A stretch of 64,000 nt of DNA from a virus (IMGVR_UViG_3300013102_000030:96001-160000); one strand, 5' to 3'. Positions 1,762 through 58,764 are shown, counted from the first letter of the stretch. Numbers and translations are program-made. Notes: generated from the letters alone by a model not told the origin.

Positions 1762-1842
1762 TATGGAGTAGAGAAGTTCGGTATCTCGCTGGTTTCATAA
1801 GCCAGAGGACGCATTCAAGTGGTTCAAATCCCGCCTCCGTCT
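1762..1842 (+). tRNA. tRNA-Met (CAT), initiator-like, T-stem disrupted by an insertion
   Basis: 1:72 mismatch, D arm GAGA/TCTC, CTGGT-TTCATAA-GCCAG; about 8 extra nt (ATTCAAGT) before the T loop. Confidence 0.7.
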
Positions 1843-1882
1843 CTAGTAGTACGTCACCGCCTTTGACGATAAAAAGGCACCG

Positions 1883-1954
1883 ACCCGTGTAGCTCAAAGG
1901 CAGAGCGGCGCACTGTTAATGCGTAGGTTATAGGTTCGAATCCTATCATGGGTG
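1883..1954 (+). tRNA. tRNA-Asn (GTT)
   Basis: ACCCGTG/CATGGGT, GCGCA-CTGTTAA-TGCGT, TTCGAAT T loop. Confidence 0.92.
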
Positions 1955-2087
1955 CAAACGCATCACTTCCCTGCTTAGGCTGGTGAGTGGTCGGGAGTAG
2001 GTCTTGTATTGCTACGGCCAACCTACTCTAATTATGGTGCAGATTCACGTCCCTCTGTCCGAGCAATCGGTTAGGCACTGCATCGAT

Positions 2088-2160
2088 GGGGACTTAGCTC
2101 AGTTGGTAGAGCGGTTGCTTTGCAAGCAGCATGTCAGGAGTTCGATTCTCCTAGTCTCCA
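2088..2160 (+). tRNA. tRNA-Ala (TGC)
   Basis: GGGGACT/AGTCTCC with G3:U70, loop TTTGCAA. Confidence 0.95.
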
Positions 2161-2274
2161 CGCAATCTAATGCCGCGAGGCCGTTAAACATCCCAACAGT
2201 GTTGTGAACCAGCCACACGTCCGCCTGACGTAAAAGGCCCCTAAGCTTTGTCCCTACAATACAATGGAGTATTC

Positions 2275-2403
2275 ATGCCAGATAACGACCCCGATTACAA
2301 AACAATCGTGGAAAAGGCGCTTCACGAACTTCAACTAATGAAGGATCGAAGCTGCATCGATTATGGCAGACTCCGATGGATTCTAGAGGGACGACCAGTT
2401 TGA
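2275..2403 (+). CDS. Small hypothetical protein (42 aa, MPDNDPDYK...)
   Basis: GGAG RBS, ATG, open to TGA; below the ORF-track cutoff. Confidence 0.55.
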   Translation: MPDNDPDYKTIVEKALHELQLMKDRSCIDYGRLRWILEGRPV

Positions 2404-2475
2404 GCGGTTAGAGGCGCGGCTGCACTCTAATCCCCTTTGTGCGAGTGCCGGAACGCACGCTCAACTTCCGGCTTT

Positions 2476-2548
2476 CCCCTCATAATATAGCGGCCTAATA
2501 TGCTCGCCTGTCTAGTGAGTTACACGGGTTCAAATCCCGTTGAGGGGA
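2476..2548 (+). tRNA. tRNA-Asp (GTC), atypical U37/A73
   Basis: CCCCTCA/TGAGGGG, CTCGC-CTGTCTA-GTGAG, ACGGG-TTCAAAT-CCCGT. Confidence 0.85.
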
Positions 2549-2585
2549 CTTTTTCATGCCCAAAACAAATCAAAGTAAAGGAAAT

Positions 2586-3557
2586 ATGGAACGCCAGCTT
2601 GTCACACTTGAAACTATCTCAGAAATCAACCCCATTCCTGATGCAGACGCTATCGAAGTCGCCAAGGTTCGCGGGTGGAATGTTGTCACTAAGAAGGGCG
2701 AGTTTCAGCCCGGAGACGAAGTCCTCTACTTTGAGATCGATTCTTTCCTTCCCATTTCCGACCCTCGGTTCGCTTTCCTTGAACCACGTGGTGTCCGAGT
2801 ACAGGATGGAGTTACGGGACACGTTCTCAAAACTGTACGCCTTAGAGGCCAGTACTCTCAAGGACTTATCAAACCAGTATCTGAATTTCCTGAGGGACTT
2901 CCGGATATCGTCAAGTTTGACCCTCCCCTTCCCGCAGGTCTTGAAGGTGCAGTAGAAGGCCAGTTCCTCTACCAGTTCGCTCCCAAGACGGATGCAGAGC
3001 GTATTCAGAACCTTGGACGAGTCCTCAATGAGATCCATGAGCACGAGTGGACTGCCACTGAGAAGATCGACGGAACATCTACCACAATCGTCAACGATGG
3101 CGGAACCATCCGGATCTGCTCCCGTAACTGGGAGATCAGCCGCCCCAGCGCACGGTTCGATCTTGCCGACAAGCTGAACCTTGCGGAGATCCTTCCTGTG
3201 GATCACGCGATTCAGGGTGAGTACTTTGGTGAGAACATCCAAGGTAACCCTCTCGGGATCAAGGGCACGGACTTCAAGGCGTTCAACCTCTACCGGAAGA
3301 CCGATAATGGCCCTGTAGCTGTTCCGTTCAATGAGTGGGGCGAAGAGCTTAGCGCTCTACAGGTCCCTGTGCTTCCTCTGACGCTCCCGCAGGCCATCCA
3401 TGAGATTGTGGATCAGGCTGATGGTTTGAAGTCTGTAATCAACCCACAGCGCCTTGCAGAAGGTATTGTGTGGCAGGGACCGAAGGGCTTCCCGTTCTTG
3501 GGTAACCGTCCCGGATTCAAGGCCATCTCCAACAAGTACCTTGCCAAGCAGAAGTAG
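2586..3557 (+). CDS. RNA ligase, DRB0094 family
   Basis: N-terminal IPDADAIE...GDEVLYFEIDS; TEKIDGTS, QGEYFG, EGIV and FKAIS ligase motifs; AAGGA RBS before ATG 2586. Confidence 0.9.
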   Translation: MERQLVTLETISEINPIPDADAIEVAKVRGWNVVTKKGEFQPGDEVLYFEIDSFLPISDPRFAFLEPRGVRVQDGVTGHVLKTVRLRGQYSQGLIKPVSEFPEGLPDIVKFDPPLPAGLEGAVEGQFLYQFAPKTDAERIQNLGRVLNEIHEHEWTATEKIDGTSTTIVNDGGTIRICSRNWEISRPSARFDLADKLNLAEILPVDHAIQGEYFGENIQGNPLGIKGTDFKAFNLYRKTDNGPVAVPFNEWGEELSALQVPVLPLTLPQAIHEIVDQADGLKSVINPQRLAEGIVWQGPKGFPFLGNRPGFKAISNKYLAKQK

Positions 3558-3576
3558 AGCATGATACAATAGTATC

Positions 3577-3650
3577 GGTGGCTGTAGCTCAGTTGGTAGA
3601 GCGCTTGCTTGTGGCGCAAGATGTCGCGGGTTCGAATCCCGTCAGTCACC
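3577..3650 (+). tRNA. tRNA-His (GTG)
   Basis: G-1:C73, GTGGCTG/CAGTCAC, loop TTGTGGC. Confidence 0.95.
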
Positions 3651-3661
3651 CTCAGATTGCG

Positions 3662-3702
3662 AAAATAGTCTAGACCTGATACAATGGTCTAGACTATTTT
3701 TG
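3662..3702 (+). terminator. 15-bp perfect inverted repeat/terminator with TGATACAAT in the loop
   Basis: AAAATAGTCTAGACC-TGATACAAT-GGTCTAGACTATTTT. Confidence 0.75.
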
Positions 3703-3722
3703 TTCCCCGACGAAAGACAATA

Positions 3723-4742
3723 ATGACAGAAAAAATCCTCCTGACCGGTGCTGGTGGAGCAATTGGCGTTCATATGCTAGCCCACCTGATGCACAACACG
3801 GACGCTACTGTAATCGCAACCGGAAGCTTCCGTAACAAGGGGTACTACGACCGCATTACCCGAGTCTGTAGGAATCATCCGGACTGGAAAGATCGTATTG
3901 AGATTCTAGTTCACGACCTTACAGTCCCGTTCTCCACCCGTCAAGTGGAATCCCTTCAGGGCGTTGACCACATCATCAACCTTGCTTCCCTCTCGGATGT
4001 CTACGATTCCATCGAGAATCCGGTACCGTTTGTCCGCAACAACGTTGATCTTGTCCTGAATATGCTGGAACTTGCGCGTCAGATCAAGCCAAAGACTTTC
4101 ATTCAGTTCTCAACCGATGAAGTCTACGGCCCCTGTGACGTAAACTCCAACGGACACAAGGAATGGGACACCATCCTGCCGTCCAACCCGTACGCAGCCT
4201 CCAAGGCAGCGCAGGAAGCCATTGCCATCTCCTACTGGAGAAGCTATGGAGTCCCTGTCATTCTCACAAACACTATGAACAATTTCGGTGAGATGCAGGG
4301 AGTTTCCAAGTTTACTGCTATGATTCAGAAGAAGCTTCAGGAAGGCGAGAAGGTAACAGTTCACGCAGCTTCTGACGGACAGATCGGCACCCGCTACTAC
4401 TTGCACTCCCGCAACGCGTCGGATGCTGTTCTGCACATCCTGAAAAACCTACCGGCAACGCTCCACCAGCCGGGAGAAATCGACCGTCCAGACCGCTACA
4501 ATGTGGTTGGAGACAAGCAGGTTTCAAACCTTGACCTCGCTCAGACCATTGCGGATCTGATGGGCAAGGAACTGGATCACGAGCTTGTAGACTTCCACTC
4601 TGAGCAGCCCGGACACGATTTGCACTACGGACTCGATGGTGCTAAGCTCAAGGCGACAGGATGGGAATCTCCCTACTCCTTTGAAGACTCCCTCAAGAAC
4701 ACCATTGAGTGGCAAGTCCGCAATCCCGAGTGGATGAAGTAA
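3723..4742 (+). CDS. NDP-sugar 4,6-dehydratase (RmlB-like extended SDR)
   Basis: TGAGGAIG, STDEVYG, YAASK, PGHDLHY motifs. Confidence 0.9.
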   Translation: MTEKILLTGAGGAIGVHMLAHLMHNTDATVIATGSFRNKGYYDRITRVCRNHPDWKDRIEILVHDLTVPFSTRQVESLQGVDHIINLASLSDVYDSIENPVPFVRNNVDLVLNMLELARQIKPKTFIQFSTDEVYGPCDVNSNGHKEWDTILPSNPYAASKAAQEAIAISYWRSYGVPVILTNTMNNFGEMQGVSKFTAMIQKKLQEGEKVTVHAASDGQIGTRYYLHSRNASDAVLHILKNLPATLHQPGEIDRPDRYNVVGDKQVSNLDLAQTIADLMGKELDHELVDFHSEQPGHDLHYGLDGAKLKATGWESPYSFEDSLKNTIEWQVRNPEWMK

Positions 4743-4751
4743 TCTGATCGA

Positions 4752-4782
4752 GCGGTCCCAGCACCCTTCTGTGCTGGGGCCG
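4752..4782 (+). terminator. GC-rich hairpin, likely terminator
   Basis: GCGGTCCCAGCAC/GTGCTGGGGCCGC. Confidence 0.55.
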
Positions 4783-4814
4783 CGCCCTCTAACAAACTAA
4801 AGGAAAAAGTACAT

Positions 4815-6986
4815 TTGAAGATCGAAGTAAAAGAAGCTACAGTTCTCTCCAACGTTCCACAGGGAAACGTCACCGCAATGTCTATCTCGGTGGACGGCAT
4901 GGAACACATCATGTCCCTTCTGACCAACCTGTACAAGGACCCTGAACTCGCTGTCATCCGTGAGTACTACACAAACGCACTGGATGCTCACGTAGCAGCC
5001 GGAGTCACCGACAAGCACGTTCTGGTCACCCTCCCGTCTTGGGACTCCCCCACATACGTTGTACAGGACTTTGGCATCGGTATGTCTGAAGAAGACATCA
5101 AGAACATCTACGCACAGTACGGTGCCTCCACCAAACGCAACACCAACGATCAGGTTGGCGCTTTCGGTCTTGGATGCAAGTCCGCCCTCACCATTGCCAC
5201 TCAGTTCACCATCGTATCCGTCAAGGATGGCTGGAAGACCACCGCCCTGATTTCCAAGACGGAAACTGGTGTCAACACCATCAACATCATCAGCCGCATT
5301 GATACGTCTGAAGGTAACGGAACCACTGTCAAGATCCCTGTTCCGGATGACTACAGCTTCAACCGGAAGGCTGAGAAGTTCTTCCCGTTCTCTGCTCCGG
5401 GACTGGTCAAGGTCAACGGCAATGAACCGAAGTACGTTCTGGAAGGTCTGACAAAGGTCACCGACCCCAACGATCCAACCCGTGAAGTCTTCCTTCAGCC
5501 TGACACCTACGGAACCTCTTACCTTATCATGGGTAACGTTGGATATGCCCTGTCCGATGATGAAATCAAGTCCTCCCTTGCACGTCTGAAGCGTGAGCAC
5601 AGCCGACTCTTTCTCAACATGCCCAAGTACTTCCCAGTACCCATCGGATCTGTTGACCTTACTCCGTCCCGTGAAGGTCTGCGGTTCACTGAGAAGACCG
5701 AAGACCTTGTTGACGAACTGATCACCTTCATGCTTGACGATCTCGCCCGTATCGCACAGGAAGAGATTGACAACTCCACTAACCTAACCGAATTCTGGAA
5801 GGCTCAGGAGAAGTGGGGAAACCTGCTTGAGAAAGACAAGATGAACGTCTGGAAGGGCGAGCACGTTCCGGCATGGATCGATCTGGACAACGAAATGCGG
5901 ATCATTGAACGATCTGACTACTACGGCTCCAGCCACCAGACCACCAAGCGGTTCAACCTCAAGCGGGATTCCGAACGTATCCTTGTCACCGGCTTCTCTG
6001 CCGACCAGTACAAGCGCGTCAACTCCTACCTGACCCCCTACATGAAGGCTGTGGATCTGGACTCCGCTGTCTTCGTGATCACCGACGACACGGAACTGTT
6101 TACCAACAAGTGGATTCCATTCCTTGAAAAGGTGACAGTCGTCTCCGGTGATGATATCATTGCCAAGGGCAAGGAACAGCGCAAGAAGGATCGAGCGTCA
6201 GCTTCGTCCTCCGCAGGTCCGGTCACTCGTGAGAAGACCAAGTACCCTGTTGTCTTCCTTGACGATGAGAAGATCCGCTGGGTTCCCTCTGATGAGATCC
6301 CTGATGATACTCCGTACTTGATGCGTACCCACGTTTGGCAGAACAGTCATCTTGACAACTTCGTGAAGAACCTGTACTATTTTGATCTGAACACCGATAA
6401 GGATCTCAGCGCGGATCGAGTCAAGGCTTTTGAAGCCCTGACGAAATCTCGCACGATTATCCTGATGGGTGGCGGTCGATCAGAAACCACGCTGCTGTCT
6501 CGCGTTCCAACGACTTATCCTCTCGCGGATGATGCCAAGGCCGCAGCAGTTGATGTAAAGGCTCTGATCACTCCGGAAGTTCTGGCCCACTACTCTGTGA
6601 CCAAGAGTTCTTGGCAGCAGTTCCTTGACCGTGCTGGTCTCCGCAACAAGATCGACCGGATCAAGGACAAGAAAATCAAGGCAGTCATCATCCCTGAAGA
6701 AGCCACTCGTAAGGCTTACGACAAGGCAAAGGCTACCATCGATACACTCTCTTGGGCCATGATCAAGGGTGTTGAAATCCCGTCCATGGAACTCAACGAC
6801 ACCAAGGATTCCACCTTGGAACTGACCAAGAAGTACCCTCTGGTCGATGCCATCACCACATGGCAACTGAACGACAAGAGCCGTAACCATCTCATCACGT
6901 ACCTCAATGCTGTACACGATGAGACGGAAGCCGCGCTCGCGTCAAAGGTTCTACCGCCCATCCCGGCTGTACCTGCATCTGTCTGA
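4815..6986 (+). CDS. rIIA: rIIA-like protein (N-terminal GHKL/Hsp90-type ATPase)
   Basis: IREYYTNALDA, DFGIGM, GAFGLG, GTTV and LTPSREGL motifs; directly upstream of the rIIB-like gene. Confidence 0.85.
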   Translation: MKIEVKEATVLSNVPQGNVTAMSISVDGMEHIMSLLTNLYKDPELAVIREYYTNALDAHVAAGVTDKHVLVTLPSWDSPTYVVQDFGIGMSEEDIKNIYAQYGASTKRNTNDQVGAFGLGCKSALTIATQFTIVSVKDGWKTTALISKTETGVNTINIISRIDTSEGNGTTVKIPVPDDYSFNRKAEKFFPFSAPGLVKVNGNEPKYVLEGLTKVTDPNDPTREVFLQPDTYGTSYLIMGNVGYALSDDEIKSSLARLKREHSRLFLNMPKYFPVPIGSVDLTPSREGLRFTEKTEDLVDELITFMLDDLARIAQEEIDNSTNLTEFWKAQEKWGNLLEKDKMNVWKGEHVPAWIDLDNEMRIIERSDYYGSSHQTTKRFNLKRDSERILVTGFSADQYKRVNSYLTPYMKAVDLDSAVFVITDDTELFTNKWIPFLEKVTVVSGDDIIAKGKEQRKKDRASASSSAGPVTREKTKYPVVFLDDEKIRWVPSDEIPDDTPYLMRTHVWQNSHLDNFVKNLYYFDLNTDKDLSADRVKAFEALTKSRTIILMGGGRSETTLLSRVPTTYPLADDAKAAAVDVKALITPEVLAHYSVTKSSWQQFLDRAGLRNKIDRIKDKKIKAVIIPEEATRKAYDKAKATIDTLSWAMIKGVEIPSMELNDTKDSTLELTKKYPLVDAITTWQLNDKSRNHLITYLNAVHDETEAALASKVLPPIPAVPASV

Positions 6987-7014
6987 ATTACAAACAACTG
7001 AAAGGCAATACTAG

Positions 7015-7971
7015 ATGACATTGTTTTCCCTCTCCGAAGACCGCAAGGGCAAGACTCTTACGATCTTCTTTGACAACGGAGACTGTGAGCCGATCCCGGA
7101 ATCTCACGTCAACTTCAAGAAGATCCTTGGAATGTGGCTTGAAGGTGGCAAGATCGATGACACCGAAGTCCGAGAACTGACAAAGATCATGGAGACGGTT
7201 GCCAAGAAGCTTGCCGTCCTGTCCGAGCGTATCACTGTGGACTCCGATGGAGTGTACTTTGATGGTGATCCGCTCAACGGTGAAGTCTCCGAACTGATCA
7301 AGAACGCGTACCTGAACGACGAAGAGCTTCAGGTTGGCTCTCTGGTCAACTTCATTGAGAAGGCTATGACCAACCCGTCCCTGAAGTCGCTGGATGATCT
7401 CTACCGCTGGATCAAGAACGGTGACTTGGTCATCGATCCTGACGGTGATATCCTTGCCTACAAGGGCACCGTCCTGAACTCCAAGGGCATCCCTGAGTCG
7501 GTCCACTCCGGTACGGCATTCGTCAACGGTGAGAAGATCACCGGCAAGATCCCGAACGTCGCTGGAACCACCATCACCATGCCGCGCTCCAATGTCAACG
7601 ACAACGAAGCCATTGCATGCTCCACAGGTCTGCACGCTGGTACGTACCGCTACGCCTCCAGCTTCGCTCAGCACTTGATTCAGGTCAAGATCAACCCTCG
7701 TGACGTTGTGTCTGTCCCGAAGGATGCCCGTGACCAGAAGATGCGTGTCTCCCGGTACATCGTACTGGACAAGATCACCGAGCGCGTCAAGACGACCTTT
7801 GCCAAGGCTCCTGTAGCCGTCAAGGAGATCTCCGAGACCAAGAGTGAGATCAAGACCGAGAAGCCTGCTGTACCCGCAGCAGAACGCATTGGAGCCGTCC
7901 GTGACTCCAAGGGCCGCTTCATCAAGGGAGCCAAGGTTCCCCGTGACGAGAAGGGACGGTTCATCCGATGA
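7015..7971 (+). CDS. rIIB: rIIB-like protein
   Basis: NPS...DG.ILAYK, MPRSNV, CSTGLHAG, INPRDVVSVP; C-terminal RD.KGRFI repeated twice. Confidence 0.88.
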   Translation: MTLFSLSEDRKGKTLTIFFDNGDCEPIPESHVNFKKILGMWLEGGKIDDTEVRELTKIMETVAKKLAVLSERITVDSDGVYFDGDPLNGEVSELIKNAYLNDEELQVGSLVNFIEKAMTNPSLKSLDDLYRWIKNGDLVIDPDGDILAYKGTVLNSKGIPESVHSGTAFVNGEKITGKIPNVAGTTITMPRSNVNDNEAIACSTGLHAGTYRYASSFAQHLIQVKINPRDVVSVPKDARDQKMRVSRYIVLDKITERVKTTFAKAPVAVKEISETKSEIKTEKPAVPAAERIGAVRDSKGRFIKGAKVPRDEKGRFIR

Positions 7972-8189
7972 GCCAGAATACAGAAACCTCTAGCAAGAGT
8001 GGCATCGGCTTTGTCGGCCTGCTGACTCTGCTCTTCATCGGCCTCAAGCTGGCCGGTATCGGTGTGGTTGCAACATGGTCTTGGTGGTGGGTTCTTTCCC
8101 CAATCTGGATCACATTCTCCCTTGTGTTTGTGATTGCACTTGTTGCATTCATCATCTTGGGCATTGCGTTCCTCATCAAAAATAAGTAG
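7968..8189 (+). CDS. Small membrane protein
   Basis: GIGFVGLL...LKL...WSWWWVLSPIWI hydrophobic motif; ATGA overlap. Confidence 0.8.
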   Translation: MSQNTETSSKSGIGFVGLLTLLFIGLKLAGIGVVATWSWWWVLSPIWITFSLVFVIALVAFIILGIAFLIKNK

Positions 8190-8227
8190 TACAATAGGTT
8201 TACCGCTCCTCGGGGCGGTATTCCTTT

Positions 8228-8301
8228 GCCCTTGTAGCTCAGCAGGATAGAGCGTCCCTCTCCTAAAGGGAAGGCCACCAGTTCGAATCTGGTCAAGGGC
8301 A
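8228..8301 (+). tRNA. tRNA-Arg (CCT)
   Basis: GCCCTTG/CAAGGGC, TCCCT-CTCCTAA-AGGGA. Confidence 0.93.
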
Positions 8302-8362
8302 CGTGACAAAACAATTTGAAGATGATATAATGGTTTCATCAACAAGTTATGTCCGTTGAAAT

Positions 8363-8434
8363 GCTTCCTTAGCTCAGTGGTAGAGCGCATTCTTGGTAAG
8401 AATGAGGTCGCGGGATCGATTCCCGCAGGAAGCT
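8363..8434 (+). tRNA. tRNA-Thr (GGT)
   Basis: GCTTCCT/AGGAAGC, CATTC-TTGGTAA-GAATG; T loop ATCGATT. Confidence 0.92.
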
Positions 8435-8436
8435 CT

Positions 8437-8558
8437 ATGTTTCTGCGTCCCCCATGATGTTTTAGGCCGAGTGGGTACGTTGATAGACCTGAGTCCCCAT
8501 TTAGCGTCAACGCGCAAGGGCGAGGGTCCGTGGGTTCGAATCCCACACGCAGAGACAT
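8437..8558 (+). ncRNA. tRNA-like ncRNA lacking a canonical anticodon arm
   Basis: 12-bp terminal stem stacked on a perfect T arm GTGGG-TTCGAAT-CCCAC; about 80-nt non-tRNA interior. Confidence 0.65.
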
Positions 8559-8564
8559 TGACCT

Positions 8565-8639
8565 GCGGGTATGGTCGAAAGGCAAGGCGGCTGACTGCAA
8601 ATCAGCAGAGTCCCGGTTCGATTCCGGGTTCCCGCTCCA
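8565..8639 (+). tRNA. tRNA-Cys (GCA), CCA encoded
   Basis: GCTGA-CTGCAAA-TCAGC, U73, CCA. Confidence 0.92.
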
Positions 8640-28739: not shown

Positions 28740-29024
28740 ATGTCTTCTACTGCTGACGCAACCCCCACATATAACTGGCTGGTCCACTACCAGTTTTCCT
28801 TCCCCAAGTCAGACCTCCGTCCAGAGGATCAGCGCTGGGGTACGGGCACCATTCCCATCCAAACGGATAAGGTTCCTGAAACTAAGGAAGAGTTCAAAGA
28901 AATTGCCAGAACCATCGGCAAAGAAGGTGGCTACGAGCGCGTAGCAATCACCAAGCTAGATGTAACCGATCACTTCGTTGAAGATAAGGCAGAGATCCTA
29001 GAAGGACTCATTGTCAATGACTAA
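28740..29024 (+). CDS. Hypothetical protein
   Basis: AAGGA RBS. Confidence 0.7.
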   Translation: MSSTADATPTYNWLVHYQFSFPKSDLRPEDQRWGTGTIPIQTDKVPETKEEFKEIARTIGKEGGYERVAITKLDVTDHFVEDKAEILEGLIVND

Positions 29025-29445
29025 CGAAAATTGGATCAAAGACGCGCCTTGTGCCCGACCTGTAAAGACGGATGACTCTGAAGAGCCTCGTATGATCGAG
29101 TTCTACAGTAGTGACCCGGAAGAGCAGAATCGGGCCAAGGCCGTCTGTGTTACATGCCCCTTCCGTCGTGAATGCCTTCAGTACGCGTACGATGGCAAAG
29201 AACGTTTCGGAGTCTGGGGAGGCGTAGGAGGGGAAGAGCTACGCAAGAATCAGGCCATCAATGCTCTTGGAGAAGCACACGTCTCCAAGCTGGGAAAGAT
29301 CCGCTGTGCTTTCTGCGGTCCTCGTACTACGGACCAGCTAGAGGTAGTGGAGCGAAAGCGTACCCGAACGCACGTCATGTGCTCAGAGTGCGGCCTTTCG
29401 TGGACCGTCCGCAAGGCGATCAATAAGAAGGAAACCAACTGGTAG
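29017..29445 (+). CDS. whiB: WhiB-family transcription factor with C-terminal zinc ribbon
   Basis: C...AKAVC..CP...EC, GVWGG; then C..CG...C..CG..W. Confidence 0.9.
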   Translation: MTNENWIKDAPCARPVKTDDSEEPRMIEFYSSDPEEQNRAKAVCVTCPFRRECLQYAYDGKERFGVWGGVGGEELRKNQAINALGEAHVSKLGKIRCAFCGPRTTDQLEVVERKRTRTHVMCSECGLSWTVRKAINKKETNW

Positions 29446-36583: not shown

Positions 36584-36868
36584 ATGTCAGAACTGTCCGG
36601 TGAAAAGATCGAGCGACTTCTCTGGAAGGCAGGGTGCGAAGTTGAACACAACGACGGCTTGGAAGAGATCAGCCCGATCAAGGTGACTGTGGGGGACACC
36701 GTAGTTATCATCTCGGAAGCATGGTTCGAAGAGGGAGAGTGGTTCGTTGACACTGACACCCTCACGCTGGATAAGCTGGTAGAGGGTGAGAAGGTCGATG
36801 AGGACTTGGACTTCATTGACACGGAGGAAGACCTCGTGGAACACATCCTGAAGCTGGGAGGGGAATGA
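36584..36868 (+). CDS. Very acidic small protein
   Basis: D/E-rich sequence. Confidence 0.7.
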   Translation: MSELSGEKIERLLWKAGCEVEHNDGLEEISPIKVTVGDTVVIISEAWFEEGEWFVDTDTLTLDKLVEGEKVDEDLDFIDTEEDLVEHILKLGGE

Positions 36869-37032
36869 AAGGCTCAATCGTCCGTATAGCTCCCAAGTTT
36901 CCCATGCCCACCGGCTACGAGCGCAGGGGCAAGGTCATCGGAGAGAATGAGACCTCAGTCGTTGTCCAGATCGAAGACAAGCCTGTGTCCATCCTCGTCC
37001 GCAAGACCCACATTGCCGTGATGTCGGCATGA
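36865..37032 (+). CDS. Small SH3/KOW-like protein (55 aa, MKGSIVRI...)
   Basis: GGAGGGG RBS; ATGA overlaps at both ends. Confidence 0.65.
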   Translation: MKGSIVRIAPKFPMPTGYERRGKVIGENETSVVVQIEDKPVSILVRKTHIAVMSA

Positions 37033-37708: not shown

Positions 37709-37966
37709 ATGACAACCCAGAACTACGATGTGCTCCGTGACCAGATCAAGAGCACCATCAGCAACATCGAACACAACACCGTCACCCGTGAGGACCGCGT
37801 CTTCATCACTCATCTGCTGGAAGAGGTCCAGTCCCATCTTGACACCGTGGAGAATCCCGGATACTTCGGATTCGCCCTGATTGGTCAGGCGTTTCAAGAT
37901 GTGGTAGGCTCAACGCAGGAACTCATCAACGACGGTCTGATACAGGAAGAGAAGACCTCCGAATGA
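37709..37966 (+). CDS. Hypothetical protein
   Basis: AAGGA RBS. Confidence 0.75.
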   Translation: MTTQNYDVLRDQIKSTISNIEHNTVTREDRVFITHLLEEVQSHLDTVENPGYFGFALIGQAFQDVVGSTQELINDGLIQEEKTSE

Positions 37967-38241
37967 TGATTCAACCCATGCTCCCGGCACTTCCACCAGC
38001 CATGAGCCACATCCCGGCCCGATCTCCTGAGTGGAAGAGCCACGAGAACATCGGCCATGCCAAGAACGCTGTCTCCCAGAAGGTACCACTGACCTCTTGG
38101 GGAAGCCGGAGGGCAGGCGCACTGTGTGACATGCACATCTTCGTCTTGGAAGATGGGCAGTATGTTCCCAAGTGGGTAATCCCTCAGGGAATGCAGTTCG
38201 CTGATCTTCCATGGAAGAACGAAAAGAAGCAACGCCCTTGA
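37963..38241 (+). CDS. Hypothetical protein
   Basis: ATGA overlap. Confidence 0.7.
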   Translation: MMIQPMLPALPPAMSHIPARSPEWKSHENIGHAKNAVSQKVPLTSWGSRRAGALCDMHIFVLEDGQYVPKWVIPQGMQFADLPWKNEKKQRP

Positions 38242-38266
38242 CTTTCCAGTCGTGGTCCTGTAAAAT
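38238..38266 (+). promoter_or_regulatory. Promoter of the putative sRNA
   Basis: TTGACT-N17-TAAAAT. Confidence 0.75.
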
Positions 38267-38271
38267 GGATC

Positions 38272-38383
38272 ATGTTGGTAGCCAGTAAATCCCCTCCTAG
38301 TTTACTGGCGAACGATCCGGTTTGGTACCCGGATCGGGGAAGTCCCGCAGTTGTAGCCTTTGCTCCTGCGGGACTTCTTTTTT
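38272..38383 (+). ncRNA. Putative three-hairpin sRNA with anti-SD loop
   Basis: Stems 38281-38309, 38313-38336 and 38339-38377 followed by T6. Confidence 0.65.
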
Positions 38384-38424
38384 GACCAAAATCTCTAACA
38401 GAAACAACAAGTAAAGGATCTATC

Positions 38425-38675
38425 ATTTCCACTGCAACCATCTCCGCTCCTGCTGCCACTGCCGATCAGGAAGTGCTGCACACCACGTCTGTAAGCTGGT
38501 AGCCAACACCAGCAACTGGCGCAAAGTCGCCAAGGATCTCATCGGTGATGAGCCTGTGACGTACGCTGAGCGGTCCAAGAAGGACACCCTGAGGAAGTTC
38601 CCCATCATCAACATCTCCTCCTCCGACAAGGAAGCTCTGGATCGCGTGTTGACAAAGGCAGCAGAGGTCGAATAG
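38425..38675 (+). pseudogene. Small gene with ATT/ATC start and an apparent -1 frameshift near 38481
   Basis: AAAGGA RBS; frame A ISTATISAP...VLH stops at 38502; frame B (HVCKL...AEVE*) has no canonical start near its 5' end. Confidence 0.45.
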
Positions 38676-38678
38676 AGT

Positions 38679-38870
38679 ATGACTAAAGGAATGATCTGGA
38701 CCGCGCTAATCACAGCGTTGGTCCTTCTGACCGGAGTCCTCATCGGACATGCACACCATGCTCAGAATGAGCAGGTCAAGAACTTCAACATGGAATGTAT
38801 TCAGGCTGGCGGAACCATGGAAGTCCACAAGGACATCGAAAAAGTCTTCTGCCAGAAGAACAAGAACTAG
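38679..38870 (+). CDS. Small membrane-anchored protein
   Basis: N-terminal TM; C...GG...C. Confidence 0.7.
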   Translation: MTKGMIWTALITALVLLTGVLIGHAHHAQNEQVKNFNMECIQAGGTMEVHKDIEKVFCQKNKN

Positions 38871-38880
38871 AAAGGACAAA

Positions 38881-39315
38881 ATGGGATACAAGAAAGACGT
38901 TGCAAAGGGCATCGGTGGAGGCACCCTTGTTCTGATCGTGGTCCTCGTGATCGGCGGTCTCATCTCGGGAGGCATCTGGCTCTTCGGAGTAGCAACCTCC
39001 GGCATCAAGGGTCAGGGTGACGCTGTCAAGATCAACAACAGCGCTGAGAACTGGACGAAGAACCAAGCGTACTTCCACAAGCAGTTCGAAGCTGTCAAGG
39101 CAGCGGACCAGAAGATCGGAACCTACAAGACCGTTCTGGACACCGACCCCAAGGACAAGACCGCGCTGACCAACTACACCAGCATGGTCAACCAGTGCAA
39201 GAACTACGTCGCTGAGTACAACGCCAAGTCGGCAGATGTACTGGCCCGTTACTGGAAAGATCCGGAACTGCCGACCACCATCAACGAACTCAACCCCGCC
39301 ACCGACTGCAAGTAA
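38881..39315 (+). CDS. Membrane-anchored protein
   Basis: AAAGGA RBS, TM helix, V..YNA.S motif. Confidence 0.8.
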   Translation: MGYKKDVAKGIGGGTLVLIVVLVIGGLISGGIWLFGVATSGIKGQGDAVKINNSAENWTKNQAYFHKQFEAVKAADQKIGTYKTVLDTDPKDKTALTNYTSMVNQCKNYVAEYNAKSADVLARYWKDPELPTTINELNPATDCK

Positions 39316-39326
39316 AGGACAAACAC

Positions 39327-39806
39327 ATGAAGAGCATTACCAAGAAAATCTCTGCCGTTGCTGTAGCCGGTCTGCTGGTCTTCAGCGCCACGGCCTGTTC
39401 CCCCAAGAGTGCGGAACTGAAGGAACGTGAAGCACTCCAGAACCAGTCCGCCAAGAAGGACTCGCTGGAACTGAAGAACCTCGCCGCCAAGCGGGATCTG
39501 GAGAACAACCCGGAGACGCTTCGCTACGTCTACATCATGAACTTTGGTCAGATCGTCGGCTACTACACGGCCAAGGGCAAGATCTCCTCGTCGGCTTCCC
39601 AGATCGCCCCTGAGCAGGATCTGATCAAGATCTGTGAGAACTGCTCCGACCGCCTCATCATGGACTCTGCCAAGGATGACGGCTCCTACGGTGACGGTGA
39701 TCCCGGAATCTTCTTCTTCACCCCGGATGGTACGATGATCGAGACCAGCCTTGATTACATCGTCTCCACCAACCCCGTCGCCATCGACGTAAAGCGTCTG
39801 GGCTAA
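39327..39806 (+). CDS. Lipoprotein
   Basis: Lipobox ATAC; DDGSYG..DPGIFFFT. Confidence 0.8.
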   Translation: MKSITKKISAVAVAGLLVFSATACSPKSAELKEREALQNQSAKKDSLELKNLAAKRDLENNPETLRYVYIMNFGQIVGYYTAKGKISSSASQIAPEQDLIKICENCSDRLIMDSAKDDGSYGDGDPGIFFFTPDGTMIETSLDYIVSTNPVAIDVKRLG

Positions 39807-45557: not shown

Positions 45558-45597
45558 AAGTGTATCGAAGTTACCAACGATTGAAGGAGGAGAAGTC

Positions 45598-46014
45598 ATG
45601 ACGGAATGGATGGACAGGGAACCCAAGGCCGAAGAGCCTGAGGAGATCAAGCGGGACAGGTGGGGAGGTATCGTCGGTGCCACCAATGAAGTTCCCGGCA
45701 TGGTCCGCTGGGTCTCTGGAGAGTCCCACTACTTCCTGAAGCACAACTCGCCCGGACGGCCCATCTTCGCTCTGGGGCTGGAGCACCGGATCGGAGACAT
45801 GGCCTACATCTTTGACACGTCCATTGAGTTCGATGACGACGAAGCTGTAGACCTGATCGACCGGATCGCCTCATTCCAAGACCTGCCCACGTACTCCGAA
45901 CTGATGGATGTCAGCAGCAAGCTCAACGCTCTGCTGTTGGAGACCGAACGCATGGACCGGCCCGAGGACCGCTACTTCCGGGACAAGCTCCGGGACATTC
46001 TGGGCAAGTCATGA
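45598..46014 (+). CDS. Hypothetical protein
   Basis: AAGGAGG RBS. Confidence 0.75.
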   Translation: MTEWMDREPKAEEPEEIKRDRWGGIVGATNEVPGMVRWVSGESHYFLKHNSPGRPIFALGLEHRIGDMAYIFDTSIEFDDDEAVDLIDRIASFQDLPTYSELMDVSSKLNALLLETERMDRPEDRYFRDKLRDILGKS

Positions 46015-55470: not shown

Positions 55471-55506
55471 TTCATTACCAACAACCCGTTAGGAGAGGAG
55501 CTAGAC

Positions 55507-55959
55507 ATGAAGATCAGGCGCATGAAGGCCGGAGACCGCAGCTACTACTTGGTGGACACCGGCACCGGAGAGATCATTGCCACCGCTGCACAGACCGGCG
55601 AACGCGGACGGGATGACTACCCGTGGGAATGGTCACTCAGCAATGACATGATCTTCGGCAAGCTGAGCGCTCGGACTGGGCACAGTGTGGAGACGCTTCG
55701 GGAAGCCATTGACATTGTGGAGACCGGAGCCAACCAGTACGGACTGCTCAAGCCGGTCGGCCCTGTCGATCCGTTCGACATCAAGGAGAATCAGGTCTTC
55801 CGTGTCATGCAGGGCGGACGGTTCAACTACTACCGCTCCACGCAGAGCGCCTACGGGACCGGCTGGAACATCGAGATCCCTGCCAACCACTCCTCCGGTG
55901 AACTGACGGAAGTCCATCTCACTCGGGACCAGCACGTCACCTTGTACGAACCCATCTAA
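55507..55959 (+). CDS. Hypothetical protein with C-terminal FDIK SH3-like domain
   Basis: GAGGAG RBS; PFDIKENQVFRV. Confidence 0.75.
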   Translation: MKIRRMKAGDRSYYLVDTGTGEIIATAAQTGERGRDDYPWEWSLSNDMIFGKLSARTGHSVETLREAIDIVETGANQYGLLKPVGPVDPFDIKENQVFRVMQGGRFNYYRSTQSAYGTGWNIEIPANHSSGELTEVHLTRDQHVTLYEPI

Positions 55960-58318: not shown

Positions 58319-58332
58319 ACCTAGGAGGGGAA

Positions 58333-58764
58333 ATGATCAGGACCAAGATCAAGTTCGAAGACATCAAGGCCGGTGACATGCTGTATGTCGTCGGCAAACA
58401 CGCTGGTCTGAAGATGGAGACCACCGGCATTGCCTTTGAGAAGACAGGCAACGATACTGCCGGTCACTACTGGATGACTTCGGAGGGTGGCACACTCATC
58501 GATGACCGGTACGATGATGAGGTTATCTACCGGCTCGATCTTGTGACTGCGTTCTTCTCCGACATCAAGCAGGGAGACCGCGTTCGCGTCTCGGAGAAGG
58601 TTGGGAATGTCGTGACCAGCCGGGAAGACACGTGCGTCTTCAAGGTCAGTGCCGGAAATGAGTACTGGCTCAACGACATGGGGCAGGTTGTCGTGATGGA
58701 ACACGTTGCCCCCGACATTGACCGCAACATCGAGATCTTGGAACGGAAGGAAACGGGTGAGTAA
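58333..58764 (+). CDS. Tandem F.DIK.GD family protein
   Basis: IKFEDIKAGD and FSDIKQGDRVRV. Confidence 0.8.
   Translation: MIRTKIKFEDIKAGDMLYVVGKHAGLKMETTGIAFEKTGNDTAGHYWMTSEGGTLIDDRYDDEVIYRLDLVTAFFSDIKQGDRVRVSEKVGNVVTSREDTCVFKVSAGNEYWLNDMGQVVVMEHVAPDIDRNIEILERKETGE

Follow-up and report, generated by a model that had tools for sequence, protein, structure and literature searches.

A conserved phage RNA gene family with predicted complementarity to both ends of a shared mRNA leader in large Arthrobacter-type phages

To our knowledge, few regulatory RNAs encoded by phages have been described, and almost none in phages of Actinobacteria. The c4 antisense RNA of phages P1 and P7 uses two short loop sequences to pair with two sites in its target leader, one of them over the ribosome-binding site (RBS), and it derives by processing from the operon that contains its only target. 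The host-encoded RsaE/RoxS-type sRNAs of Firmicutes occlude the Shine-Dalgarno (SD) sequences of many mRNAs through C-rich unpaired motifs (CCCC). Proteins can act on the same element: RegB of phage T4 cuts GGAG in early SDs, and RegB and RegA switch off a temporal class of phage mRNAs via the SD. The actinobacterial 6C RNA has by definition two hairpin loops that each contain six or more consecutive cytosines. C-rich loops of this RNA pair with G-rich mRNA sites in Actinobacteria without the help of a chaperone (PMC6486639). Recurrent extended SD motifs are known from Cluster K mycobacteriophages, in which the SAS/ESAS motif (GGG-ATAGGAG-CCC) is located 3-9 nt before the starts of some non-structural genes, many of which have a SigA-like promoter (PMC3203893). 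Whether the partner of SAS is an RNA or a protein was left open in 2011 (PMC3203893), and its role was still called unknown in 2024-2025 (PMC11373665, PMC12699233).

The sRNA gene analyzed here lies in a window of 64,000 nt, taken from an IMG/VR virus record of 174,136 bp (bases 96001-160000) whose completeness is rated at 100%. The record belongs to a large soil phage of the Arthrobacter type; among named phages, those closest to it are Racecar, Mimi, Talia1610, and Atuin of Arthrobacter globiformis (approximately 194 kb). The window also carries eight tRNA genes (Met, Asn, Ala, Asp, His, Arg, Thr, and Cys) in two groups at 1762-8639 on the + strand. The promoter proposed in a preliminary description of the locus, TTGACT-N17-TAAAAT, was borne out: positions 38238-38266 contain a SigA/sigma-70-type promoter with a 17-nt spacer that agrees with the consensus at 10 of 12 positions (Table 1). 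The three hairpins followed by six T residues were recovered too, with 10, 8, and 14 pairs in the fold instead of the 9, 8, and 12 given originally. The minimum free energy of the region 38268-38386 was -54.6 kcal/mol (z = -5.96), and none of 200 shuffled sequences was as stable. Rfam searches at gathering thresholds over the whole window and at E <= 10 over positions 38100-38500 returned tRNAs only and no family for the sRNA, and ARAGORN detected no tRNA or tmRNA at this locus. A match to a Drosophila scaRNA model (38144-38292, + strand), which spans the end of the ORF 37963-38241 and the promoter, scored 28.5 bits against a gathering threshold of 55 and was judged to be chance.

Table 1. Features of the sRNA gene and of candidate target sites (positions in the window)
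Feature	Position	Strand	Remarks
-35 hexamer TTGACT	38238..38243	+	overlaps the TGA stop codon of the ORF 37963-38241; TTGACA/T in 16/16 homologues
-10 hexamer TAAAAT	38261..38266	+	TATAAT, TAGAAT, TATACT, TATCAT, or TAAGAT in homologues, 6-7 nt 5' of GTTGG
sRNA gene, approximately 110 nt	38274..38383	+	predicted 5' end 38272-38274; fold, covariation, single copy per genome
Unpaired 5' end GUUGGUA	38274..38280	+	invariant alignment columns; complement of TACCAAC
Hairpin 1	38281..38309	+	38281-38290 with 38300-38309; 9 Watson-Crick pairs and one U-G; 3 stem pairs with compensatory changes
Loop 1, UCCCCUCCUAG (DNA TCCCCTCCTAG)	38290-38300	+	carries the conserved core CCUCCUA
Hairpin 2	38313..38336	+	38313-38320 with 38329-38336, 8 bp; 3/6 stem pairs with compensatory changes
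Loop 2, UUUGGUAC	38321-38328	+	invariant across homologues; complement of GUACCAAA
Hairpin 3 and T6, terminator	38337..38383	+	38337-38350 with 38366-38379, 14 bp; T6 at 38378-38383; 9/13 pairs with compensatory changes
In-window leader	45572..45600	+	TACCAAC, 7 nt, GGAGG, ATG at 45598; G000 141572-141590
In-window leader	55476..55509	+	TAGTCT -10, TACCAAC, then TTAGGAGAGGAG, ATG at 55507
RBS of gene 58333-58764	58321..58331	+	11/11 complement of loop 1; top-ranked predicted target in G000; outside the leader class
CTGGGAGGGGA, overlapping the start of gene 36865-37032	36854..36864	+	predicted-target rank 5

A set of homologues was built from BLAST searches, three pattern scans of public collections, and a covariance model, which together yielded 16 distinct sequences from the phages Racecar, Mimi, Talia1610, and Atuin and from soil viral and metagenome contigs. 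The covariance model found the gene in single copy in each genome, with no second copies in the phage genomes, and it was silent at a hairpin RNA candidate with a CCCCC loop at approximately 170.6 kb (G000:C1:170600-170715, outside the window), which is thus not a paralogue. Scanning bacterial and archaeal genome contigs with the pattern GTTGGTAGCC-N20-50-GGTTTGGTACC identified no host or prophage copy. The scan gave eight matches in unrelated bacteria and archaea, which were considered chance because the sRNA architecture is absent from them and their number equals the estimated chance expectation; L003, L014, L016, L020, and L021 were rejected as homologues likewise.

All 16 homologues adopt the same three-hairpin fold, each behind its own TTGACA/T-N17-TAnnnT promoter. 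Compensatory changes were present in 15 of the 27 pairs, and 99.8% of the pair cells hold standard pairs. When the partners were slid by 1-3 columns only 2-5 pairs appeared compensatory, and none of 500 shuffles reached 15. The first bases of the RNA, GUUGGUA(G), are conserved over positions 38274-38281. The G of GUUGG is located 6-7 nt 3' of the -10 hexamer in every homologue (it is the eighth base in the window), and because of this fixed distance it is the likely 5' end. Within loop 1, CTCCT is invariant and CCTCCTA occurs in 15 of the 16 homologues, Atuin alone having CUCCUCA. Thus, three segments (the 5' end, the loop-1 core, and loop 2) stay unpaired and invariant or nearly so while the stems vary. 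The apical part of hairpin 3 and loop 3 differ among homologues in both length and sequence, and the U-tract is weak in several of them. Of the two loops for which complementarity had been proposed, loop 1 therefore retains its core among relatives and loop 3 does not; the match of loop 3 to the RBS of a DUF932 gene is due to chance, its complement AGCAAAGG occurring three more times in the window, which is the chance level. The gene has the properties expected in general of a trans-acting base-pairing sRNA: its own promoter and terminator and a non-coding sequence (these being sequence predictions only), a covariation-backed structure, and invariant seeds complementary to mRNA sites beyond chance (shuffles were exceeded in three of four genomes). 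The claim of a stand-alone sRNA was upheld in that covariation across the 16 homologues identifies a structured, conserved RNA gene and not a peptide gene. We regard it as a new and well-supported family of phage RNA genes whose predicted regulon is specific, testable, and unusually broad.

The predicted regulon emerged from the sequences upstream of phage genes. Leaders and targets were analyzed in the complete genomes G000, G001, Racecar, and Atuin, in which genes were called with a simple heuristic based on codon usage and SD sequences, and a fifth, independent partial genome, G002, was included. When 7-mers were counted over the 45 nt that precede each predicted start in the four complete genomes, TAGGAGG, CTAGGAG, and AGGAGGA, together with TACCAAC, ranked at or near the top, with 12-21 regions each versus approximately 1 expected. 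The loop-1 core CCUCCUA has TAGGAGG as its exact reverse complement, and the sRNA 5' end GUUGGUA has TACCAAC. Loop 2, of which GUACCAAA is the reverse complement, fits the TACCAAC motif over six bases. Atuin is an exception, with TAGGAGG being rare upstream of its genes (2/236 RBSs versus 49/728 in the other three genomes, P = 1.5e-4). Among the RBSs of G000 and G001, TAGGAGG (14-20) was more frequent than AAGGAGG (4-5).

The two motifs belong to the same leaders, which share a common layout: a -10 hexamer TAG(A/T)CT or TAAGCT, 6-7 nt, ACCAAC, a C/A-rich stretch, (GT)CC-TAGGAGG-(AC), 4-6 nt, and the start codon. The SD of this class is thus (C/U)UAGGAGG. Promoter geometry predicts +1 at the A of ACCAAC, with the T at -1, and leaders of 20-33 nt. 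In 30 of the 51 TAGGAGG RBSs the SD can be drawn as a UAGGA pentaloop in a 4-bp clamp (NNCC-UAGGA-GGNN) with covarying flanks. The composite TACCAAC-N4-25-AGGAGG occurs in 9, 9, 20, 13, and 8 copies in the five genomes versus 0-2 in the backwards control, and nearly all copies are on the strand of the sRNA. No other predicted transcript starting with GUUGGUA was found. Two leaders of the class lie within the window (Table 1), and most members of the predicted regulon are located outside it. One leader in G001 (102731) has five tandem ACCAACC repeats. Across the -10/+1 region of some leader promoters (G001 103685 and 105333, Racecar 7290, and Atuin 8614) there is a palindrome, GTTGGT(A)-N1-3-(T)ACCAAC, which could be a protein operator.

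Pairing was evaluated by duplex energy. Loop 1 of G000 gave a mean of -13.4 kcal/mol on leader-class RBSs versus -7.5 kcal/mol on those of other genes, whereas the 16S anti-SD tail, with the sequence that we take it to have, gave -10.8 and -8.4 kcal/mol, respectively. A two-site score was defined as the energy of loop 1 on the RBS plus the energy on the upstream leader of whichever segment paired better, the 5' end or loop 2, with a cut-off of <= -18 kcal/mol and 200 shuffled-segment controls. The cut-off was reached by 34 genes in G000 (control mean 13, maximum 32), 40 in G001 (mean 7.6, maximum 35), 39 in Racecar (mean 4.6, maximum 20), and 28 in Atuin (mean 13.1, maximum 35); the counts were above all 200 shuffles in the first three genomes but did not exceed them in Atuin. 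The predicted helices are short, 7-11 bp for loop 1 with the SD and 5-7 bp for the 5' end or loop 2 with the leader 5' end. The antisense strand of the sRNA gene reads GTACCAAA, approximately 20 nt, CTAGGAGG, which is the order of the elements in the leader. Collinear pairing with a leader is thus possible for loops 2 and 1, but not for the 5' end together with loop 1. The complementarity of sRNA and leader could have been inherited from an inverted copy of a leader.

Evidence that loops and RBSs have changed together was weak. Atuin leaders read (T/C)GAGGAGG, which its deviant loop CUCCUCA fits, and the genomes with the loops CCCCUCC (G000) and CUCCUCC (Racecar) have the most GGAGGGG and GGAGGAG RBSs, respectively, although these numbers are small. 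Taken together, these observations give weak hints of co-evolution across genomes. Cognate loops showed no preference over non-cognate loops across genomes, either in longest match or in duplex energy. The 5' end and loop 2 never vary, and therefore co-variation of these segments with their targets is impossible.

The predicted targets cluster in arrays of small orphan genes that each carry a separate TTGACA-17-TAGnCT promoter, an ACCAAC leader, and a GTCC-TAGGA-GGAC clamp. These arrays are located at G000:C1:100-7950 (L076, outside the window), at 99-110 kb in G001, and at 5.4-17.4 kb in Racecar, in every genome approximately 40 kb downstream of the sRNA gene. Of the top 22 predicted targets, 12 fall inside the array in G000 (0.1-7.6 kb, P = 2.6e-10) and 17 in G001 (99-110 kb, P = 2.6e-16). 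In Racecar (MN234206) the arrays are within an exact direct terminal repeat of 20,468 bp, and in Atuin (OK040794) within one of 17,312 bp. Ten array proteins were compared with Pfam, which returned no family, and with PHROGs, which returned at most families of unknown function. Heuristic and curated gene starts disagree for about half of the Racecar array genes. In Racecar and Atuin, about half of the array genes have a curated start upstream of the predicted promoter and a strong SD and ATG downstream of it. Location within the terminal repeat and gene size, together with the analogy to SPO1 and T5, suggest that the leader-class targets are probably early host-takeover genes.

We consider it reasonably probable, judging from sequence, that the RNA is a phage-encoded trans-acting anti-leader sRNA that shuts off the leader-class genes as a group. 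Starting from the gene structure, its conservation and covariation, the motif complementarity, and the enrichment, we infer a mechanism in which transcription start sites, pairing in vivo, repression, and timing are all predicted. A host-type (SigA) RNA polymerase would transcribe approximately 110 nt from the dedicated promoter, and the folded sRNA would expose the GUUGGUA 5' end, the CCUCCUA of loop 1, and UUUGGUAC of loop 2. Its targets would be 10-20 or more phage mRNAs per genome with 20-33-nt leaders starting with ACCAAC. Loop 1 would make a kissing contact of 7-11 bp with the SD, often presented in the UAGGA clamp, while the sRNA 5' end or loop 2 would take the 5'-terminal ACCAAC of the leader through 5-7 bp. 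The whole leader would then be occupied and 30S binding blocked. In addition, a short duplex would enclose the 5' ends of sRNA and leader alike, with a possible effect on 5'-end-dependent decay. The sRNA would in this way temper or shut off an early-type gene class. Its promoter belongs to the same host-type class as the target promoters, and therefore the timing is not readable from sequence.

As specific targets, the individual sites from which loop-1 pairing had been proposed are not supported. Loop 1 is indeed the exact reverse complement of the site that ends 1 nt before the ATG of gene 58333, GGAGGGGA directly adjoins the ATG at 36865, and a one-mismatch copy is present at 29224-29234 within a WhiB-like ORF (29011-29445); the sequence details given originally were all correct. 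However, Pfam found no SH3 domain in the proteins of 58333 and 36865, which had been assigned to the SH3 family. Gene 58333 has an orthologue only in G001, with an RBS (TTAGGGGAGA) that does not track the loop of that phage, and the RBSs of the 36865 orthologues in three relatives do not co-vary with the loop. The 36865 site is furthermore the coding end of the upstream gene (Leu-Gly-Gly-Glu). Because they rank first and fifth in the two-site score, the 58321-58331 and 36854-36864 sites may still be bound by the sRNA, but they are not what the sRNA family is conserved for. The preliminary interpretation is thus partly supported, being right in kind and wrong in particulars: loop 1 is always anti-SD, and a trans-acting SD-pairing repressor is the best reading of the kind of RNA, whereas the targets named for it do not hold, and the 5' end and loop 2 segments and the main leader-class regulon had been missed.

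These sites bear on a second explanation, close to the preliminary interpretation, by which the RNA is a general anti-SD mimic. Its loop would compete with 16S rRNA for strong SDs of the GGAGG type wherever they occur, on host or phage mRNAs; 58333 and 36865 would be among its best sites, and the UUGGUA segments would serve another role, such as stability, dimerization, or protein binding. This explanation is in agreement with a conserved loop core that equals the anti-SD core plus an A, with the ranks of the two genes in G000, and with the lack of cognate-loop preference. Any anti-SD-like loop pairs with SDs, which counts against the anti-leader reading. An 11/11 match to some RBS was obtained with approximately 1% of control loops in which the CCTCC core was kept and the flanks were randomized (P approximately 0.01), so that the match at 58321-58331 is rarer than expected for an anti-SD-like loop, which speaks for the general mimic. 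However, a general mimic does not account for the two other invariant unpaired segments, which complement the second most enriched upstream motif, nor for the A after CCUCCU, which matches the TAGGAGG bias of the phages and at which position the 16S tail presumably has a U, and the orthologue RBSs show no co-variation. We therefore regard this explanation as unlikely. Mimicry of the 16S 3' domain, which presumably shares GGUAGCC and CCUCCU with the sRNA, has no Rfam support and stays speculative.

A role linked to a protein is quite unlikely. UUGGUA, present twice, and CCUCCUA might bind an RNA-binding protein of phage or host, the sRNA acting as decoy or sponge, or GTTGGTA and TACCAAC might be DNA half-sites of a regulator at +1. 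Both UUGGUA copies are invariant, and loop 2 with its closing base gives the self-complementary GGUACC; the best argument is the GTTGGTA-N-TACCAAC palindrome at some promoters of G001, Racecar, and Atuin. Yet the sRNA bears the complements of the leader motifs and not the motifs themselves, and therefore cannot mimic leaders for a protein. TACCAAC is also strictly strand-specific relative to transcription, and it is covarying hairpins that display the sRNA motifs in their loops, a feature of the RNA rather than of DNA.

It is very unlikely that the locus is a cis-acting leader or attenuator, in which the promoter would drive the small-gene operon at 38415-39806 and the hairpins, the last one as terminator, would govern read-through or translation of the next gene. 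In 13 of the 16 homologues a Racecar gp205-family gene does follow hairpin 3 by approximately 40-50 nt, no other strong promoter precedes it, and the weak U-tract of several homologues makes read-through plausible. However, Atuin and L005 have a different gene directly downstream, and all 16 homologues have the same three hairpins, a common fold in which no alternative antiterminator structure is evident. Moreover, the downstream RBS, AAAGGA, is not complementary to the sRNA loops, and the match to the leader motifs is left unexplained. The gp205-family gene itself is unusual in the window. It lies at 38415-38675 (+ strand; C-terminal part LVANTSNWRKV...AAEVE) and is split by a 1-nt shift near 38490-38500 (GTAAGCTG; Val-Lys-Leu in the in-frame relative L004). 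The N-terminal frame has an in-frame TAG, and the gene is without an ATG, GTG, or TTG start. Because the genes of the window, L009, and L011 all begin with ATC ATT TC after AAAGGA, the sequences suggest that translation may start at ATT or ATC.

Finally, translation of a 37-residue peptide from the ATG frame 38272-38385, which overlaps the sRNA in the window as had been pointed out and is open there, is extremely improbable and was rejected, because frame and start codon are not conserved (only 4 of 16 homologues have the ATG, indels of lengths not divisible by three shift the frame, and stops lie at scattered places), there is no RBS, and the stem substitutions are compensatory, so that structure is kept and the frame is not.

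The anti-leader reading can be set beside the systems introduced above. In 6C RNA (Rfam RF01066; B11 in mycobacteria), likewise from an actinobacterial setting, pyrimidine- or C-rich loops act on G-rich or SD-like sites of many targets without Hfq or ProQ (PMC6486639), much as is predicted for the sRNA. Unlike 6C RNA, it is phage-encoded, has only one C-rich loop, which is a precise anti-SD plus A, carries two extra UUGGUA seeds, and is predicted to target its own leader class. RF01066 reached neither its gathering threshold in the whole window nor E <= 10 in 38100-38500, and the loops UCCCCUCCUAG and UUUGGUAC do not have the two-loop cytosine runs. Like c4 RNA, the sRNA is predicted to be a phage RNA repressor: loop 1 is complementary to the SD, loop 2 and the 5' end are complementary to the start of the leader, and loops 2 and 1 are in collinear order, so that two-site pairing of the c4 kind may occur. 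It differs from c4 in having its own promoter and terminator, in place of an origin in the operon that it represses, and dozens of predicted targets approximately 40 kb away; no Rfam family, C4 included, matched it. The RsaE/RoxS-type sRNAs have no sequence or structure match to it and no 5'-end seed for mRNA 5' ends. T4 RegB and RegA do the same job as that predicted here, but as proteins and not as a base-pairing RNA.

The leader motif is like SAS in being a recurrent extended SD with symmetric flanks (GTCC-TAGGA-GGAC) 4-6 nt before the start. It differs in sequence and phage group, a TACCAAC-type 5' motif has not been described for SAS, and here there is a candidate RNA partner. The 13-nt SAS (GGGATAGGAGCCC, <= 2 mismatches, 3-9 nt before a start) was not found in the leader motif, which reads (GT)CC-TAGGAGG-(AC). 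In the Cluster K1 Mycobacterium phage Adephagia (L077:30660-30720, record 58659-58719) the sole reverse-oriented SAS sits in the loop CCUCCUAUCC of a long hairpin, within the 432-bp non-coding gap between gp92 and gp93, a region conserved in 182 Cluster K phages. A generalization to all of Cluster K was rejected, because the anti-SAS loop is K1-type only and other subclusters have different pyrimidine-rich loops or a deletion; the hairpin is a lead and not evidence.

A broader proposal, which we put forward only tentatively, is that large actinophages mark a whole temporal class of genes by a common short leader, composed of a constant motif at its 5' terminus and an extended SD of the start-associated type, and control it with one anti-leader RNA that pairs with both leader ends. 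If this is true, it would be an RNA counterpart of T4 RegB/RegA in which the 5' end of one RNA is directed against the 5' end of another. SAS-type motifs, moreover, would gain the trans-factor long sought for them, with the anti-SAS hairpin loop of K1 mycobacteriophages as a second instance, and the purpose of recurrent start-associated motifs would become clear, a question raised in 2011 (PMC3203893) and still standing in 2025 (PMC12699233). The idea could be put to a direct test in Racecar, Mimi, Talia1610, and Atuin, which have been isolated, with Arthrobacter globiformis B-2979 as host, and the pair of leader and sRNA could serve as an orthogonal translational switch for Actinobacteria. 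For the phages themselves, a single RNA is predicted to read a shared leader "barcode" on dozens of their own terminal-repeat genes, which would make it a simple RNA switch.
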